Source of the DNA: an uncultured Candidatus Saccharibacteria bacterium | GTDB taxonomy: Bacteria > Patescibacteriota > CALEFQ01 > G965231055 | DNA length: 64,000 bases | Direction: 5' to 3' | NCBI GenBank assembly: GCA_965231055.1 | Contig: OZ246411.1 | Location: 277,041-341,040, forward strand | Part shown: piece by piece, positions 44,561 to 64,000 of the stretch | How positions within the stretch are numbered: the stretch's first letter is position 1 | How the letters are laid out: each line of letters begins with the position of its first letter | Position numbers and translations under genes: made by a program | The notes under the pieces: generated by a model | Database searches by the model: none | Told to the model about the DNA's origin: nothing | Seen by the model: only the letters and a program-made list of their open reading frames with translations

Positions 44561-44637
44561 TCGGGGCGTGGCGCAGCTGGCTAGCGCGCTTGGTTTGGGA
44601 CCAAGAGGCCCTGGGTTCAAATCCCAGCGCCCCGACC
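44561..44637 (+). tRNA. tRNA-Pro (UGG)
   Basis: Acceptor CGGGGCG/CGCCCCG, anticodon loop TTTGGGA, T-loop GGTTCAAATCC, CCA encoded. Confidence 0.85.
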
Positions 44638-44738
44638 AACTTTCTTCTATCGTGGAACGAAGAGAGATATATAAGAGTTAAAAATTATAAATCAGTGTGG
44701 CTGTATCCGTTGTGGCTTTTGTGAACTTAAACCGAATA

Positions 44739-44815
44739 CGGGGATTGGCCTAGTGGCTTAAGGCGCCACGTTCGGGACGTGGAGATCGGGAGTTCAAGTC
44801 TCCCATCCCCGACCA
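44739..44815 (+). tRNA. tRNA-Pro (CGG)
   Basis: Acceptor CGGGGAT/ATCCCCG, anticodon stem CCACG/CGTGG with loop TTCGGGA, T-loop AGTTCAAGTCT. Confidence 0.85.
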
Positions 44816-44936
44816 ACTTTCGATGAGCCTTGGCTCTAGAACAGAAAACCATAGTGATTCTATGTTGAGGGGTGGTAGTGGGGGAGCAAGTACTTTTTAA
44901 AAAATATAGTATAATATAAATAGTTAAAACTAATTT

Positions 44937-45011
44937 GCGGGTGTCGTACAATGGTTAGTACGCTAGCCTTCCAAGCTTGCGATGACGGTTCGATTCCGTT
45001 CACCCGCTCCA
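44937..45011 (+). tRNA. tRNA-Gly (UCC)
   Basis: Acceptor GCGGGTG/CACCCGC, anticodon loop CTTCCAA, T-loop GGTTCGATTCC, CCA encoded. Confidence 0.8.
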
Positions 45012-45134
45012 CAAGAATATCGCTTAAACAGGCGGTATTTTTGTATACCCCTAGGCGAAAGTAGAACTTTTATATTATTAAAATAAAAAGAGCTTCGGCG
45101 TGAAGCTCCTTCTTTAATCGTGCGAAAGGTGCGG

Positions 45135-45665
45135 TTATAAGTTTATGGCTGATATGATTTGTTGCCACAGAATATTGCCACCGCTTGCAACCATAGCGGG
45201 AGTTTGGTTGAAGATTGTGGCGTCGCGAAAGTATTGTTCATCAATTATGCTTGCGACTGCTGAAAATTTGTGTTTGCTGATAAGTGTTGCGATGAATTGG
45301 ATTTCAGCCTCTTTAATCTCTGCTACATCGTTGTTAAAGATTGGTGCAAGAATGATTTCGCTTGTGTCCATTTTTTCACAAGCTATGTCTAATACTTTCT
45401 GACATTCTTTTTTGTGCCATCCCTTTGTGAGTCTGTCGAGAGGGAGAAAGATGACAACTTTATCGTAATCTCTTTTCCATTCCGCTATGCTTTCGATAAA
45501 CTCGTCCAGATAGCTATTGTCTTGGTATACGAAAAGTGGTTGGGTGAACGCTACGCATTTACAAGCACTTGCAATTGCGCACTCGATTACCTCGACGACA
45601 GTAGCTAACAAGCTATCGAATGCATTAGATCCATCGATAATCCAAATCAAAAGAACATTTTTCAT
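45135..45665 (-). CDS. Hypothetical alpha/beta (Rossmann-like?) protein, higher GC; first gene of the tRNA-adjacent islet
   Basis: 176-aa ORF. Terminator hairpin (GAGCTTC-ggcgtg-GAAGCTC plus T-run on the minus strand) at 45090-45122. Confidence 0.4.
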   Translation of the reverse strand: MKNVLLIWIIDGSNAFDSLLATVVEVIECAIASACKCVAFTQPLFVYQDNSYLDEFIESIAEWKRDYDKVVIFLPLDRLTKGWHKKECQKVLDIACEKMDTSEIILAPIFNNDVAEIKEAEIQFIATLISKHKFSAVASIIDEQYFRDATIFNQTPAMVASGGNILWQQIISAINL

Positions 45666-45860
45666 AAACCCCCTTGGTTTAACTGTTTTTACGGGAATAT
45701 CCTGAATAACAGGTTAGAATACAATACTTTACTGCGTTTGTCAATCACATTGCAATATACAAGTTCTAACATCCCCCACCACGGAGCTCCAGGGCTTTAT
45801 TCACGACTCCGTCGCGGTCTGCGCCCTGTGAACTAATAAAAAATACCGCCAAATCTGGTT

Positions 45861-46118
45861 GTGTTTTTTTGTATAGTTTATAGGACAGAAAAACATCTTG
45901 ACAAAGTTGCCAGGGCTCTGGCTGCTGTAGCAATAACTATGTTTGTAGCTACGATACTTGAGATGGACAGATATCTGGGACTATTACCCGATGAATATTC
46001 TAATATCATTTTTGCTATTTCTCGTTTTATTGGACTTGGATTTTTAGTTATTGCGCTTGGAATATTTTTGAGAATCACCAATGATGTTGCAAAAAAAAAG
46101 CAAGATGATCAAAAGTAG
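45861..46118 (+). CDS. Small membrane protein
   Basis: Two hydrophobic helices. Start uncertain. Confidence 0.25.
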   Translation: MFFCIVYRTEKHLDKVARALAAVAITMFVATILEMDRYLGLLPDEYSNIIFAISRFIGLGFLVIALGIFLRITNDVAKKKQDDQK

Positions 46119-46333
46119 AACATTTTTAGAGTATTAAAATTAGTCAAATATTTAAAGATAGAAAAAGGGACAGCACGTAGGGGCTGTTCTTTTATTTGAC
46201 AAAATGTATGCGGGAGTTATTATGTAGACAATAATAAGGGGTAGAAGGAGGGTTCTACGTCAGTTTTGCCCGAGCTCTTTCCCAAGATTTTAAAACGAGA
46301 CCAGAGTCTCACATTTTGTCAGGAGGTGCGGTG

Positions 46334-46585
46334 ATGAGTGTAGCAGTGTTTGTTGAAGTGAAGAGTTTGGGTGTGTGTTTGTGCGGAAAACCAGCGAAAC
46401 AGCATCCAAAGTATCGGAGTGGCAGAGTCTGCAGTGTAAATTGCGGACGAAAATCGTGGTATACTAATTATTGTTGGAATTGCGGTACAATGGTTGATTC
46501 ACGAATCCACATAAAGGATACAGAATCAGGATATTATTTTTGTCCTGATTGTGGATGCTCTGCTCCGCCAAAAGATGACAAATAG
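46334..46585 (+). CDS. Cys-rich zinc-ribbon protein (83 aa)
   Basis: AGGAGG RBS 7 nt upstream of ATG 46334. CLCGKP...CSVNCG...CWNCG...CPDCGC. Confidence 0.4.
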   Translation: MSVAVFVEVKSLGVCLCGKPAKQHPKYRSGRVCSVNCGRKSWYTNYCWNCGTMVDSRIHIKDTESGYYFCPDCGCSAPPKDDK

Positions 46586-46611
46586 TCATTAGATCTCTTT
46601 TTAACTCGCGT

Positions 46612-46640
46612 GGATCCGACTTCGGTTGGATCCTTTTTTA
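46612..46640 (+). terminator. Intrinsic terminator (GGATCCGAC-ttcg-GTTGGATCC then T-run)
   Basis: Stable hairpin with a TTCG tetraloop, then TTTTTTATTT. Confidence 0.7.
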
Positions 46641-46752
46641 TTTCAAATTTTTCAGTAAAATGGGTGTAATTTTACGGTTGGATTAATTATACAGTGGTGT
46701 TAAGAAAAAGCCGGCACTTGTAGTGTCGGCTTGATTTTGAGTTATAAGAGCT

Positions 46753-46998
46753 TTATTTTTTACCGCGCGAGTTTATTTGCCTGAGTTTCTGTTGGCACCT
46801 GCTTCTGATTCGCGCATCTTTTGTTTTTAAAAGGAGCAATTTTATTTGTCGCGGTTCTTTTGCGATCATGATGGCGCGTCTCATGAGAGCTCTTCTGTTG
46901 CATCTCGTGTACTCAATTAATATCATTACGCCTTCAAATGTTTTACAAAAGCTCAGTATCTTACATTCAACCGCAAAATCGAAAACCGTCTTTGCCAT
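46753..46998 (-). CDS. Hypothetical basic protein (81 aa)
   Basis: AGGAGG 10 nt upstream of minus-strand ATG 46998 (MAKTVFDF...). Arg/Lys-rich C-terminus. Confidence 0.3.
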   Translation of the reverse strand: MAKTVFDFAVECKILSFCKTFEGVMILIEYTRCNRRALMRRAIMIAKEPRQIKLLLLKTKDARIRSRCQQKLRQINSRGKK

Positions 46999-47191
46999 AC
47001 TCTTCATGCCTCCTTTGAAGTATTGAATTTTAGTTCCCCGATACATTTCCTGAATATGTTTTGAAGACTATTATGATCAAGGCTTTGTGTCAATAAATCG
47101 ATTTATCTTAGTTCTTTGTTTGACTTGAAGGGTTTTTGAGAGTAGTTTTTACTTGTTCTTTCATACAAACCAAAAAAGGAGGAGAATACTC

Positions 47192-47617
47192 GTGAAAAGA
47201 CTTATTTCCTTGGATTATGCTTTTTTTTCTGTTTTTGCATTTCTCGTGTGCGCCCTTTATTCGGCACCGATTTACTTTTTTCACATCCTGAGGACGGGGG
47301 CATTTCCAGATACTACGGCTGTCAAATATTTAGAAAATGTTTTAGTTCTGAATTCTCTGTTTTTAGCAGTCTCTATCTGTCTCAGCATTGGGTTTGCAAA
47401 AGTAATTCACTATGCCGTCAAAAAGATTTTTGTGGTTGATGCTTTCCTGGAGGCAATCATTGTCTTGATCTTTTTGGTGGTGACCACGGTTTGTCTGATC
47501 TATTTCGAAGCTGGTATCCTGCACTCACTTGTGTTTTCGATCCTATTCTTCTTCATTTATATATGGATCAGGTTTGAACCAAATAAAGTGAATTGGGCAG
47601 CTTATCTTGGGTTTTGA
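47192..47617 (+). CDS. Hypothetical polytopic membrane protein
   Basis: AAGGAGGAG RBS then GTG 47192. Four TM helices. Confidence 0.4.
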   Translation: MKRLISLDYAFFSVFAFLVCALYSAPIYFFHILRTGAFPDTTAVKYLENVLVLNSLFLAVSICLSIGFAKVIHYAVKKIFVVDAFLEAIIVLIFLVVTTVCLIYFEAGILHSLVFSILFFFIYIWIRFEPNKVNWAAYLGF

Positions 47618-47660
47618 TCCGTAAACAACACACTTTTTTATCTCGCTATTTTACGACATA

Positions 47661-47687
47661 AAAACTCTCACCAAGTGAGAGTTTTTT
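47661..47687 (+). terminator. Intrinsic terminator
   Basis: AAACTCTCAC-caag-GTGAGAGTTTTTT. Confidence 0.75.
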
Positions 47688-48052
47688 AAATTCTACTATT
47701 TGTTCTGCAAGAGAGGCGAGGCCTTGATTGAAAGGGTGGTCAAATAATTGAGACCCTTTATGCCGGCCACGAAAGCTAAACTAAGGTAGTAGCTTTCTAA
47801 GATCCGGTTATCTTGGGTAAAAAGGTATATAACCCTTTAACCCTTGATTGGACTCTCCCTTGCAGAACAGATGGCATAATCGTTTTTTTCACGACCTATA
47901 GGCTCTGACACATCAACCTCAGGAGGGTGAGGAAGAAAATCATTGCCTATAGATGGTGAAAAAAAGCTTTTTTGATTACATTATATGTTATCATAACTCT
48001 TATATTTTGTCAAGTATATTGGTGTTTATTGGCTTAAAACATGGGTTTGAGT

Positions 48053-48083
48053 AAGAAAAAGGTTCTACTTTTTGAGTAGAACC
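48053..48083 (-). terminator. Intrinsic terminator of the minus-strand lipoprotein gene
   Basis: GGTTCTAC-tttttgag-TAGAACC with a T-run on the minus strand. Confidence 0.65.
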
Positions 48084-48111
48084 TGTGATCGGTCGTTTCT
48101 TTGTGAGAGCG

Positions 48112-48459
48112 TTAGAGCAAGTAATGGATTCCTTCCATCGAGACTACGACAATCCCGTTTTCACTGTCTCGGAATCTTAAGAATTCAGTTTCATTTAACT
48201 CTGCTGGGGGAGTTTCCATCTCCCATTCTTTTTCCTCCCAATTGTATCGATGGATTTGTCCGTCGACAATTTTGAATTTTTCGACGACTCTTCCGTTAAA
48301 CACGATCTTGGCAGTTTGCCCGTTGTCGGAAACGCAGTATTTGACCTCTGCCGCCCGTAATCCGAAGCATATAACCGAACTTGCGCTTTCGCGGGCGAAT
48401 TGAGCGCATCCAGTAAAACAAAAGCAAACCGCTATCAGAATTGCGACTATCCTCTGCAT
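48112..48459 (-). CDS. Small lipoprotein, higher GC
   Basis: AAAGGAGG RBS. Signal peptide ending CFCFTGC (lipobox-like). Confidence 0.45.
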   Translation of the reverse strand: MQRIVAILIAVCFCFTGCAQFARESASSVICFGLRAAEVKYCVSDNGQTAKIVFNGRVVEKFKIVDGQIHRYNWEEKEWEMETPPAELNETEFLRFRDSENGIVVVSMEGIHYLL

Positions 48460-48588
48460 AAAACCTCCTTTGAAGCGAACGTTGACGATAAACTACAACT
48501 TTTAAAGTTTTTTGTCAAGTTACGTGTTTTTCATAAGATTAGTAGATTTTACTTGTATTATGATATCTCAAACTGTTAAACTGAGCTT

Positions 48589-49221
48589 ATGACTCACCCA
48601 ACAATAAAAGAAGAGATAGAATTGATGAAGCACGGCCACTTGCTTGTTTCGGGTTCTGATGAAGCTGGTAGAGGGGCATGGGCTGGGCCCGTGGTTGCGG
48701 CATCTGTAGTTTTGAATTTTGAAAAAGGGGAAGATTTGTTAAAAACATTGGATGGAGTAAATGACTCCAAACTTTTGACTCCCAAAAAACGCGATTATTT
48801 TTTTGAAATAGTGCGAGAGAATTGTATAAGCATAGGAGTTGGAATTGTGAGTAGTGATTTTATTGATACAGAGGGAATAGCTCAGGCTACCAAAAATGCT
48901 TTTTTTGAAAGCTTCCAAAAACTAGAATGCAAAACTAGTTTCGCGCTTCTTGATGCTGTAGGTTTCAAAGATTTTCCAGTTTCTCACAAAGCTATTGTCA
49001 AAGGTGATTCCAAAGTTCTATCCATTGCGTCAGCATCCATTATTGCCAAAGTCACTAGAGATAGAATTATGAATGAATTACATTTGAAATATCCCGAATA
49101 TGATTTTGCATCTCATAAAGGATATGGCACAAAAAAACACCTAGCCTCCATAGAGAAATTCGGGGTTTGCGATATCCATCGAAAAAGTTACGCCCCGATT
49201 CGTAAAGTTTTACTGAAGTAG
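48589..49221 (+). CDS. rnhB: Ribonuclease HII
   Basis: GSDEAGRGAWAGPVVAASVVL...D.VNDSKLLT, the RNase HII catalytic DEDD region. Confidence 0.85.
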   Translation: MTHPTIKEEIELMKHGHLLVSGSDEAGRGAWAGPVVAASVVLNFEKGEDLLKTLDGVNDSKLLTPKKRDYFFEIVRENCISIGVGIVSSDFIDTEGIAQATKNAFFESFQKLECKTSFALLDAVGFKDFPVSHKAIVKGDSKVLSIASASIIAKVTRDRIMNELHLKYPEYDFASHKGYGTKKHLASIEKFGVCDIHRKSYAPIRKVLLK

Positions 49222-49269
49222 CTCGAAGTGGTATAATAGAGATATAAATTCCTCTCTTATTACAAAAAA

Positions 49270-49866
49270 ATGAAAAAAACAAATCGCAAAACTTCGCCTT
49301 TTCTTATGCCACTTTCGCTTACTACGAGACAAGCAGGTAGTATTGTGAATCCTAGATTGGCACTAAAGCAGGCTGGATTGAGACAAGGAATGTCTTTTGT
49401 TGATATGGGATGTGGATCTGGATATTTTGTTAGTCCTGCCGCAAAAATAGTCGGAGATATGGGCAAGATTTATGCTATAGATATTTTGCGTTCCGCACTA
49501 GATCATGTGAAAAGCAAAGCTCGAATGGAAGGCAATAGAAATATAAAGGTTATTTGGGCAGATTTAGAAAAAGTCGGAAGCACCAAGATAAAACCAGGTG
49601 TCGCAGATATGATATTTGTTTCTAGCACACTTCACCAAGTTGAAAAGAAAGAAAGTATATTGGAAGAAGCGAAAAGAATTATGAGCCCAGGGGGGAAGCT
49701 TGTGATTTTTGAATGGGAGACTTCGGCAATTCCCTTTGGACCACGATCCAGACACAGAATCTCAGAAGATGATGTTATTGCGATTTGCCGAGAGCATGGT
49801 TTGAAATTGTATGACGCATTTAAACCTGGGAAATATCACTACGGTTTGGTGTTTATAAAAGAATAA
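49270..49866 (+). CDS. Class I SAM-dependent methyltransferase
   Basis: Motif I VDMGCGSGYF. Confidence 0.7.
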   Translation: MKKTNRKTSPFLMPLSLTTRQAGSIVNPRLALKQAGLRQGMSFVDMGCGSGYFVSPAAKIVGDMGKIYAIDILRSALDHVKSKARMEGNRNIKVIWADLEKVGSTKIKPGVADMIFVSSTLHQVEKKESILEEAKRIMSPGGKLVIFEWETSAIPFGPRSRHRISEDDVIAICREHGLKLYDAFKPGKYHYGLVFIKE

Positions 49867-49867
49867 A

Positions 49868-50056
49868 ATGCAGGATAGGCCACCGAGTAAATTCAAAAGT
49901 GATCCGAGGGATCCAGATATGGAGGTAAGGTATGGGCCCGGAATAGTTTTGCCTTTTGCCATACTTTCATTTTTCATTTTTCTGCTCAGAATAGTTTTTT
50001 GGATAGTGAAACCAAAATCTACTTTAGTTCAGGCGAAAGAGGGAAAAAAAAGATAG
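49868..50056 (+). CDS. Small hypothetical membrane protein (62 aa)
   Basis: One TM helix. Weak call. Confidence 0.2.
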   Translation: MQDRPPSKFKSDPRDPDMEVRYGPGIVLPFAILSFFIFLLRIVFWIVKPKSTLVQAKEGKKR

Positions 50057-50155
50057 CTAGTCATTGGTTTGTAGTTAGTAGTTATTGGCTGGTAGTAAAT
50101 CACACTACTTACTAATTACTAAAGACTACTAAATAGGAAAGGGGGGATTTTTTAA

Positions 50156-50515
50156 TTGAGGACAAATAAACAGAAAACAGGAGATTATGGCGAGAATCTC
50201 GCTATCTGGTGGCTTTTGAAACAAGGATTTAAGATTGAAGTTAGGAGATTTAGAACTGCCGCAGGAGAAATAGATGTAATAGCGCGCAAGAAAAATGCGT
50301 TGTATTTTTTGGAAATAAAAACACGAAAAAGTGATAGATTTGGGAGAATAGGGGAGCTGGTTTCTCCTCAAAAATGGGAGGCCAAAACTGAAGTTGTATA
50401 TGCCTTTATTGAAAAGAATCAGGAAAGATTTGGAGAGTGTGATTGTGTCATGGGGCTATTGGGTGTAGAAATTAAAAACAAAAAAACTGTTTTCAATCTT
50501 TTTCTTTTGGATTGA
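50156..50515 (+). CDS. yraN: YraN-family (UPF0102) endonuclease
   Basis: GENLAIWWLLKQGFKIEVRRFRTAAGEIDVIA...FLEIKTR. Classic rnhB-yraN neighbourhood. Confidence 0.8.
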   Translation: MRTNKQKTGDYGENLAIWWLLKQGFKIEVRRFRTAAGEIDVIARKKNALYFLEIKTRKSDRFGRIGELVSPQKWEAKTEVVYAFIEKNQERFGECDCVMGLLGVEIKNKKTVFNLFLLD

Positions 50516-50574
50516 CAAAAACTTTTGTTTGCCTGAGTATTCTAACTAGCACCTTAAACTATGAGGAGAATGAC

Positions 50575-50901
50575 ATGAAAGAAAAATCAGAAGTTGATCA
50601 TTTATTCGAAGTTATGGAAAAAGTATTGAGGCGTGTGGTTTATGGAGAGCAAGGTATGCTCACAAATACAGACTTTAAAGATTTTGATCGAGCTCGTGAG
50701 GCATGGAGTAAAAGACAGTGTAAAAGAAGGGGGTGTCAGCACAGAGCCGACACATGTTCCTTTGCTTCCCCCGGTATTCAATGGCTTACCTCACTTGGCT
50801 GGGTTGATCTCTGTGAATTTCTTAACCGCGAGCATTCCCCCAAAACCATTAACGCTCTTGACACTAAGTGGCTTCGTCGTCCAGGCCACTTCAATCCTTG
50901 A
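50575..50901 (+). CDS. Hypothetical protein, higher GC (~47 %), Cys-containing
   Basis: GAGGAGA RBS then ATG 50575. No motifs recognised. Confidence 0.35.
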   Translation: MKEKSEVDHLFEVMEKVLRRVVYGEQGMLTNTDFKDFDRAREAWSKRQCKRRGCQHRADTCSFASPGIQWLTSLGWVDLCEFLNREHSPKTINALDTKWLRRPGHFNP

Positions 50902-62626: not shown

Positions 62627-63208
62627 AAAAAAAGTCGCTCCGTTTAATTAATGCGACAAATGGAGTATACCATATACCAAATACTTTGTCAAGCCGATTA
62701 CTTGATAAAGGTTGATTTTTGGCTTATTTAAGCCAACTAGGTAAGTCTCCAAAGCCAATCGAGGCTTTACCTATAGGTATATACGTAGCTCCTTTGTCTT
62801 ACGACCGCCCAAGATCCTTTTGATCGGATCTAAGGGCAAGTTTCTGCCTTATTATGAGCAAAAACAGGTTATTTAGTTATAAAAAGCGGATCATATTGAT
62901 CGCTTGCCGAAAAAGTGTAGCATATCATCACTTTGCGTCAAGCAGACTGGGGATAGAGTGGGGATGAGTGAATTTTGGGCTATAAGTTGCTAGTTAGTAA
63001 GCGTATTTTTACCTAAGTTGACATAATGGGGTTATATGGTATTATGCATTTTGTAAATAAAAATTATGGAAAGTCGCATTTGTAAAAATTCATGGAATGC
63101 CATGCATTCACCACTTTTCACTGGTGTATTTGTGTATGCACACATGAATAGATTGCGACTTGTTAATTTTTCTACAAAACTCTAGATAAGATACTTTTAT
63201 AGATAATC

Positions 63209-63238
63209 TAACCTGTCAGCAATCTGAACAGGTTTTTT
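63209..63238 (+). terminator. Orphan intrinsic terminator in a 700-bp gene-free region
   Basis: ACCTGT-cagcaatctga-ACAGGTTTTTTTG. No ORF of 60 aa or more upstream on the plus strand. Confidence 0.5.
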
Positions 63239-63343
63239 TGTTCTATAGAGTTGTCTGGTCCTGAATTTCGGAGCTAGTCGAGTCTAGAGATACTAGGCTT
63301 CCTCGTATGAGGACTAGCTCTTTTAAAATTTAGGAGGTGTAAA

Positions 63344-64000
63344 ATGAAGCGCAATGTGCAACTTTTCTTGGCATATCAGTTTTTTTTCGCTTTGGTATTC
63401 TTTGGACCATTTTGGCAGCAATTCTGTAATACCACTCTTGGAATCAGTCAATCATCGATTTTTGTTATAGAAAATTTGATGGTGCCAATACTATTGGTGT
63501 TTGAAATTTTTTCTGGTGTCATGGCTGACAGATTTTCACGGAAACTAATGCTCGTAATCGGTCCACTTTTTTGTGCTGGCTCAATGCTGTGTTTAGCTTT
63601 CACTCAGGGAATTAAACTTTATGCGTTGAGTGATTTTCTCTGGTGTGTCGGATGGGTGATCATAAGTGGAACTGATGTTGCCATGCTCCGTGATTCCATG
63701 AATGGTGAATTTGTGGAGCAGAAATTTAGGCGCATTCTTAATCTAGCGACTTCGTTGGGACTTGTGGTTACGTCTTTATCAAACGTTCTACCTGGAATAC
63801 TAATAGCAATGGGTGTGTTCACTGATTTGCGCATTACTATGCTGGCTACTGTCCCGGCGTCAATCGCATGTTCTACTTGCGCCTTATTTATGAACGAACC
63901 TAAGCGTAATACAATTAAGTCGAGCAGGCATATTCTGATCATCGGAACGTCTCAAGTGCTGAAACAAAAAAAAGTATTGCTGTTGGGATTTTTCTTTAGC
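63344..64000 (+). CDS. MFS-type transporter, N-terminal part (runs off the window end)
   Basis: AGGAGGTG RBS. Six TM helices. MADRFSRK (D-R-x-G-R-K-like MFS motif A region). Confidence 0.55.
   Translation, partial: MKRNVQLFLAYQFFFALVFFGPFWQQFCNTTLGISQSSIFVIENLMVPILLVFEIFSGVMADRFSRKLMLVIGPLFCAGSMLCLAFTQGIKLYALSDFLWCVGWVIISGTDVAMLRDSMNGEFVEQKFRRILNLATSLGLVVTSLSNVLPGILIAMGVFTDLRITMLATVPASIACSTCALFMNEPKRNTIKSSRHILIIGTSQVLKQKKVLLLGFFFS

Follow-up and report, generated by a model that had tools for sequence, protein, structure and literature searches.

We lean towards the view that a block of DNA between a tRNA-Gly gene and rnhB, the gene for RNase HII, was not integrated at tRNA-Gly but is resident in its host, an uncultured bacterium with a small genome, as a fast-evolving accessory locus. 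The block, here called the islet, covers positions 45012-48480 of a 64-kb stretch of contig OZ246411.1 from an uncultured Candidatus Saccharibacteria bacterium; this whole stretch is referred to as the window. The islet is a lineage-specific cluster of orphan genes, an already known kind of locus. Five of its six genes belong to a class with a consensus Shine-Dalgarno (SD) sequence, raised G+C content at third codon positions (GC3), atypical codons, own terminators and no detectable homologues, and the islet is the largest cluster of this class, which is dispersed over the window. An earlier reading made from the letters of the DNA (the sequence-only reading) had proposed either an integrated remnant island at the tRNA or a hypervariable accessory locus. 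We find that the second proposal is supported, given that the six proteins match no families, that those of 176 and 115 amino acids have no relatives among billions of sequences, that the DNA upstream of rnhB is divergent among related bacteria and that GC3, codons and SD sequences are atypical. The first is not, because there is no integrase, no repeat of the tRNA and no phage or plasmid similarity, while bulk GC is barely raised and the atypical signature is scattered over the window. In addition, a gap between two of the genes holds an unproven candidate for a novel small RNA, predicted from its promoter, terminator and fold.

Composition, codon usage and translation signals

The sequence-only reading had the composition shifting to about 45 % GC directly after tRNA-Gly, a figure that measurement did not reproduce: GC of the block is 39.0 % versus 37.3 % for the window, which places it at the 92nd percentile of windows of equal size, and 43-46 % is reached in only three of the 14 bins of 250 bp across it. 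At third codon positions, GC3 amounts to 0.41-0.49 in four of the six islet open reading frames (ORFs) versus 0.24-0.33 in conserved core genes; the ORF of 85 amino acids (aa) is the sole one with a native-like value (0.24). Codon usage is atypical in all six. Under a codon model derived from 37 core genes, they yield log-odds of -0.11 to 0.14 per codon, where 100-codon chunks of core genes yield 0.27 +/- 0.10, and the annotated frame is the top of the six possible frames for five of them.

A strong SD had been ascribed to every gene of the islet, which is correct for five and wrong for the 85-aa ORF, which has none. The five carry a consensus SD with duplex energies of -9.7 to -12.4 kcal/mol, as computed against the anti-SD ACCUCCUUU, which may not be the host's own 16S 3' end. 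Core genes, on the other hand, are mostly without an SD, their median duplex energy being -2.1 kcal/mol. When all 71 ORFs in the window are considered, SD energy correlates with GC3 (Spearman -0.42, p = 2e-4), and the median SD energy of GC3-high ORFs (n=13) is -11.2 kcal/mol versus -1.1 kcal/mol for GC3-low core genes that stand first in their operon, as judged by 60 bp or more of free upstream DNA (n=27; p = 2.4e-5). Further GC3-high ORFs, likewise lacking Pfam matches, stand at 1.3, 12.2, 12.6, 18.8, 40.6, 60.9 and 63.6 kb. The layout of the orphan class is monocistronic. Since the same signature recurs in the window's Pfam-less ORFs and in the equivalent genes of three relatives, it is not the mark of a recent insertion.

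The rnhB edge in related bacteria

Relatives contribute between 0.01 and 1.5 kb of DNA upstream of rnhB, leaving the left two-thirds of the block without a comparator. The closest rnhB, located on a 3.9-kb contig (L050), is 82 % identical to that of the window, and the next ones (L051 and L065-L067) are 53-55 % identical. An rnhB-anchored scan of GTDB species genomes reached 49 % identity at best, with no synteny, and exact-protein look-ups with rnhB, the 176-aa islet protein and HU led to no contigs other than those of the same organism, 100 % identical. As to the left flank, two scans of JGI metagenomes with tRNA-Gly patterns gave either no loci or 12 loci that share the tRNA only.

In L050 the gene next to rnhB, divergent from it, encodes a homologue of the lipoprotein of 115 aa at the right end of the islet, 35 % identical (tblastx E 8e-21) and with G17-C18 invariant. 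By blastn, rnhB and the genes downstream of it align between this contig and the window at 81-88 %, and nothing upstream aligns. L067, with an rnhB identity of 54 %, has at this place a gene for a lipoprotein of 196 aa whose lipobox is LLITGC and which carries the domain twice in tandem (BLASTP E 6e-6 and 1e-4; hhalign probability 83 %). The neighbours in L051 (rnhB 55 %) are unrelated small ORFs of 52-59 % GC on a backbone of 42-45 %. The DNA upstream of rnhB is different or extremely diverged in every relative inspected. On these alignments the 115-aa gene is an old positional orthologue that diverges far faster than rnhB (35 % versus 82 % identity). A profile built from the lipoprotein pair recovers only itself among billions of sequences.

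The rnhB-proximal genes of L050, L051 and L067 have SD energies of -9 to -12 kcal/mol and a GC3 above that of their own rnhB, and in the same three contigs neither rnhB nor the methyltransferase gene has an SD. Given that the lipoprotein orthologues keep the signature where rnhB is 54-82 % identical, the signature is a stable property of the gene class and not that of an unameliorated import.

The contigs L065 and L066 end 8 and 79 bp upstream of rnhB, a faint hint that assembly breaks off where the population is heterogeneous, or at a strain-variable region. Outside the islet, too, small-gene indels set the window apart from its 82 % relative. A 129-aa ORF 3' of yraN (50512-50901 of the window) is missing in L050 (2370-2580), and an extra SD-led ORF of 67 aa and 50 % GC, at 3165-3368 of L050, is absent from the window. 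Also absent from the window is a gene for a 23S-rRNA-intervening-sequence protein (PF05635), which in L051 lies at 2147-2503 between rnhB and the methyltransferase gene and has a strong SD.

Layout of the locus

The tRNA-Pro/Pro/Gly cluster that bounds the islet on the left was borne out by ARAGORN and Rfam, and the ORF listing places six ORFs on alternating strands at the positions claimed for them. On two public contigs of the same organism, both 100 % identical, the gene calls give products of 176, 85, 83, 81, 141 and 115 aa. No ORF of at least 40 aa beyond these six is left in the islet. Individual terminators had been attributed to the genes, and indeed one lies 3' of each ORF; terminator-like hairpins are enriched in the islet as a whole (11 versus 3.9 +/- 1.9 expected). 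The features are as follows, promoters and terminators being predictions.

44562-45011, plus strand: tRNA-Pro(UGG), tRNA-Pro(CGG) and tRNA-Gly(UCC), found by ARAGORN and by Rfam tRNA at 63-68 bits; left boundary, outside the islet
45085-45113, minus strand: intrinsic terminator of the 176-aa gene, a 12-bp stem and then a T-run; bidirectional, also 3' of tRNA-Gly
45135-45665, minus strand: 176-aa orphan ORF with SD AAGGGGG; promoter-like site at 45744-45716
45861-46118, plus strand: 85-aa ORF with two hydrophobic segments, GC3 0.24, no SD
46196-46223, plus strand: promoter of the 83-aa ORF, 11/12 match
46334-46585, plus strand: 83-aa Cys-rich ORF with SD AGGAGG (frame open from 46316)
46612-46633, plus strand: terminator hairpin of the 83-aa ORF
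46708-46732, read on the minus strand: terminator hairpin of the 81-aa ORF
46753-46998, minus strand: 81-aa basic ORF with SD AAAGGAGG (frame open to 47046)
47192-47617, plus strand: 141-aa ORF with four hydrophobic segments and SD AAGGAGGAG (frame open from 47153)
47660-47690, both strands: bidirectional intrinsic terminator with a 12-bp stem, common to the 141-aa gene (plus) and the RNA candidate (minus); its sequence is AAAAACTCTCAC-CAA-GTGAGAGTTTTTT; as terminator of the RNA candidate it extends over 47686-47660
47660-47978, minus strand: candidate structured RNA of about 320 nt, based on fold, promoter and terminator predictions
47985-48013, minus strand: sigma-70-like promoter of the RNA candidate, TTGACA, 17 nt, TGaTAACAT; extended -10, 10/12 with TG
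48060-48084, minus strand: intrinsic terminator of the lipoprotein gene, a 10-bp stem and then TTTTTCTT
48112-48459, minus strand: 115-aa lipoprotein ORF, divergent from rnhB
48589-49221, plus strand: rnhB (RNase HII), Pfam RNase_HII 1.9e-34; conserved core gene, right boundary

The segment 45766-45840, in the promoter region from which the 176-aa and 85-aa genes diverge, has about 60 % GC; its folding is unremarkable, with z about -1.6 on both strands.

The six proteins

The products agree with what the sequence-only reading had said of them. The 176-aa protein is predicted to be an alpha/beta protein, with a three-layer alpha/beta fold in its AlphaFold2 model, and the lipoprotein is predicted to be all-beta; these single-sequence models are of low confidence, the predicted local distance difference test (pLDDT) being 62 and 60. 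A word index of 5.8 billion proteins holds no relative of the 176-aa protein but itself, and likewise an exhaustive HMMER search over 1.84 billion representatives returned only the protein itself. A TIR-domain or defence identity was considered for this protein and set aside, as neither a specific TIR match nor a known defence system was found. The 85-aa product is a putative small membrane protein with two hydrophobic segments. The 83-aa product is zinc-ribbon-like, with nine Cys and the motif CWNCG...CPDCG, and its best Pfam match, A2L_zn_ribbon, attains 21.9 bits versus a cut-off of 22.9 (E 1.4e-4). Basic residues dominate the 81-aa product (21 K+R versus 6 D+E), and the 141-aa product has four hydrophobic segments, consistent with a protein of four transmembrane (TM) segments. 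The 115-aa product has a signal peptide ending at Cys18, a hydrophobic segment at residues 4-22 and the lipobox MQRIVAILIAVCFCFTG-C18, from which lipidation is predicted.

None of the six matches a family in Pfam (above cut-off), PHROGs, PADLOC or NCBIfam, phage families and defence systems included, and the 141-aa and 83-aa proteins have no match in the viral contigs of IMG/VR. The islet proteins had been said to resemble other cassette genes in the window; by tblastn of the six against the window we find only themselves.

A structured RNA candidate

Between the genes for the 141-aa and 115-aa proteins, a gap of 490 bp (47620-48110), passed over in the sequence-only reading, holds a structured element that resembles a transcription unit. 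No ORF in this gap exceeds 33 aa and none has a properly spaced SD. The element of about 320 nt folds to -127.9 kcal/mol versus -75.5 +/- 5.2 kcal/mol for dinucleotide shuffles (z = -10.1), and after GC correction no other 300-nt stretch of the 64 kb is as stable; in four other islet spacers z lies between -1.6 and +0.6. Its predicted 5' domain folds into a hairpin of 83 nt, with 21 near-perfect pairs, one bulge and the apical loop CCCUCC, and the predicted second domain is a 193-nt multi-branch structure with a 15-bp closing helix and two AAAGGGU hairpins. With a predicted promoter, a predicted terminator, a stable fold and no SD-led ORF, the element has what would be expected, by sequence, of a stand-alone small RNA gene. 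When the 71 translation-initiation regions are ordered by predicted pairing with the apex of the hairpin, those of five islet genes take ranks 1, 2, 5, 6 and 8. This order carries little weight, since it largely restates that those genes have GGAGG.

Rfam 15, which includes RNase P, transfer-messenger RNA (tmRNA), signal recognition particle (SRP) RNA, 6S, ROOL, GOLLD and riboswitches, gave no match at E <= 1 over 44-49 kb, none at the gathering score over the window, and at E <= 10 over 391 nt of the element only noise of at most 21.6 bits. The identities RNase P, tmRNA, SRP and 6S were rejected on the negative results of Rfam and ARAGORN, and by inspection there is no P4-type pairing. Searches with a single-sequence covariance model gave no second copy, either in the window or in 645 kb of loci, and two exact 22-23-mers of the element are absent from viral contigs.

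Two further tracts of the window deserve mention. At 802-1303 a 500-bp ORF-free spacer between two orphan ORFs folds at z -4.9, with a 13-bp G/C-rich helix and no Rfam match at the gathering score. At 62627-63618 a 1-kb tract has no ORF above 51 aa and has an 11/12 promoter with extended -10 at 63018-63045 on the plus strand; downstream of this promoter 436 nt fold at z -4.2 and hold an AGGAGG-led mini-ORF, with no Rfam match at E <= 1.

Alternative explanations

Could the islet be what is left of a mobile cassette or genomic island beside tRNA-Gly, one that has lost its integrase and att repeats, with an insert of about 45058-48071 and an ancestral lipoprotein-rnhB pair? We consider this distinctly unlikely. 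It would account for the position next to the tRNA and for orphan genes with non-core codons, raised GC3 and strong SDs. It also draws on a 26-nt inverted repeat (45058-45083 / 48046-48071, 81 % complementary) that brackets all of the islet but the lipoprotein gene, as well as on the 9-mer AAGTAGAAC, of which the window has five copies versus 0.62 expected, three of them in the islet near the 3' ends of genes (45059, 46113 and 48062). Both sequences were chosen post hoc and are marginal, a repeat of such kind occurring in 5 % of Markov simulations, and both may be due to chance. Against a remnant stands the lack of any integrase, transposase or phage-like protein, in line with what had been noted from the letters: none of the six ORFs matches a recombinase model of Pfam, PHROG or NCBIfam. 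The direct repeat of the tRNA-Gly 3' end that an integrated island would lead one to look for is not there, as no match of 12-20 nt with up to four mismatches exists on either strand of 45012-50500 and the repeat search gave the same result; nor is a target-site duplication visible at the islet. Among 50,697 phage records and 72,556 plasmid records, blastn detected nothing similar to the block, and IMG/VR scans with two proteins and two RNA segments yielded no match. Finally, the block exceeds the window by only 1.7 points in bulk GC, and the seemingly foreign signature is also borne by the lipoprotein gene, which lies outside the inverted repeat and is old in the lineage.

For the RNA candidate, the competing idea is that the structured tract of 290 bp (47689-47965) is a palindromic element of the DNA, or a pair of them, similar to a miniature inverted-repeat transposable element (MITE), its promoter and terminator matches being incidental. 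We judge this unlikely. It stays a serious rival all the same, because the tract is a singleton, is absent at the equivalent position in L067 and folds nearly equally on the plus strand. Its helices are long and near-perfect in Watson-Crick pairing (21 bp with one bulge; 15 bp), and no Rfam family matches. Speaking for an RNA gene instead are the single copy in 64 kb, the want of a convincing target-site duplication at 47689 or 47965, and a second domain that is multi-branched where a simple hairpin would be expected; moreover, the 10/12 extended -10 promoter is at the proper upstream distance and the 12-bp terminator directly downstream, on the same strand. It is very improbable that the gap is a type I toxin-antitoxin system, in which the 33-aa ORF on the plus strand (47953-48054) would encode a toxin whose start is sequestered by a structured 5' leader, and the minus-strand promoter would give rise to an antisense antitoxin RNA. 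Such a system would explain the small ATG-initiated ORF (MVKKSFFDYIICYHNSYILSSILVFIGLKHGFE), the location of its start codon inside the stem of the 83-nt hairpin and the antisense layout, with the minus-strand promoter lying within the ORF. Yet the promoter search gave none upstream on the plus strand, and GGAGG, the closest SD-like sequence, stands 26 nt away from the ATG. The peptide lacks a clean hydrophobic helix of 18-20 residues, no plus-strand T-run follows the downstream hairpin, and neither PADLOC nor Pfam gave a match. Equally hard to credit is that the 83-, 81- and 141-aa ORFs are not genes and that the region is largely non-coding spacer. Codon scores near zero or negative and the lack of homologues would fit, and so would the omission of these three ORFs from one public gene-calling run. 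However, open frames of 81-154 codons are improbable at 37 % GC, each ORF has a consensus SD at 6-10 nt, of about -11.5 kcal/mol, a site that core genes mostly lack, and its own terminator 3' of it; the annotated frame is the top of six for the 83- and 81-aa ORFs, and the products have coherent features (a zinc-ribbon-like motif; four TM segments).

Several of these observations weigh against a resident accessory locus of six genes and one RNA. The bracketing inverted repeat and the one gene-calling run that omits three of the ORFs have been described, and for the 141-aa ORF a frame other than the annotated one scores better by core codon usage. The SD energies depend on the assumed anti-SD. 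Comparison with relatives is possible for the rightmost gene only, and a recent acquisition of 45.0-48.1 kb would be compatible with it. As for the RNA, the plus strand folds nearly as well as the minus strand (z -7.1; -118 versus -124 kcal/mol for minus; 6 versus 7 G-U pairs), and no homologue is present in the window, 48 further loci, viral contigs or the phage and plasmid sets.

Discussion

As a resident accessory locus, the islet would consist of seven independent transcription units, namely six monocistronic mini-genes and one ORF-free gene for a structured RNA of about 320 nt. Two of the six products would be membrane proteins, with 2 and 4 TM segments; the other four would be a lipoprotein, a zinc-ribbon-like protein, a basic protein and an alpha/beta protein of the cytosol. 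While the core genes are AT-rich at third codon positions and mostly SD-less, five of the six islet genes would belong to a separate, SD-led class of orphans. Most likely, we infer, the products are surface or interaction factors shaped by diversifying selection or by repeated allelic replacement, given that envelope proteins make up three of the six and that the one traceable gene stays in position as its sequence turns over very fast. The RNA, with its apical loop CCCUCC resembling an anti-SD, may modulate translation of these SD-led genes.

A search of the literature for comparable loci gave nothing informative; four kinds of known system offer partial parallels. Like tRNA-linked genomic islands, the islet lies directly 3' of a tRNA and holds accessory genes of unknown function with non-core codon usage and GC3. 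Unlike them, it has no integrase, no att-type repeat of the tRNA and no mobility, phage or plasmid genes; its bulk GC is near that of the host, its rightmost gene is old and its signature is scattered over the window. Reduced-genome bacteria such as Mollicutes carry variable loci of surface lipoproteins and small membrane proteins. The islet shares with the variable lipoprotein loci of Mollicutes small independent lipoprotein and membrane genes that outpace their housekeeping neighbours and keep their place but not their sequence; it differs in having no paralogous family, repeats, phase-variation tracts or recombinase and in showing no sign of switching, and only one of its six genes is for a lipoprotein. 

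Regulatory small RNAs of Gram-positive bacteria, RsaE/RoxS and the hairpins of RNAIII among them, have C-rich, anti-SD loops. The RNA candidate resembles these in its predicted own promoter and intrinsic terminator, in the lack of an ORF and in the loop CCCUCC complementary to GGAGG, whereas its length of about 320 nt, its large multi-branch domain and its far greater stability set it apart, as do the absence of homologues and of any sequence or Rfam relation. On the DNA side the tract recalls ERIC, RUP and Correia-like elements, which are palindromic intergenic repeat elements, and MITEs, with which it has in common an intergenic location and size (80-200 bp tracts), long near-perfect inverted repeats and equal folding of both strands; it departs from them in being single-copy in 64 kb, without target-site duplication, multi-branched and bounded by promoter- and terminator-like sequences.

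Regarded as a putative genomic island, the locus is ordinary. To our knowledge, almost no non-coding RNAs have been described in this lineage, and the RNA candidate, if expressed, would be a new one. That it founds a new class of structured regulatory RNA, whose CCCUCC loop pairs with the GGAGG of orphan GC3-rich genes, is a long shot; if true, it would be a dedicated translational switch for a fast-evolving accessory proteome, leaving the SD-independent core genes unaffected. An orphan class with a stable signature undermines the routine equation of atypical composition with recent horizontal transfer. Likewise, the presence of an SD-led orphan class next to a largely SD-less core points to two regimes of translation initiation in one small genome.

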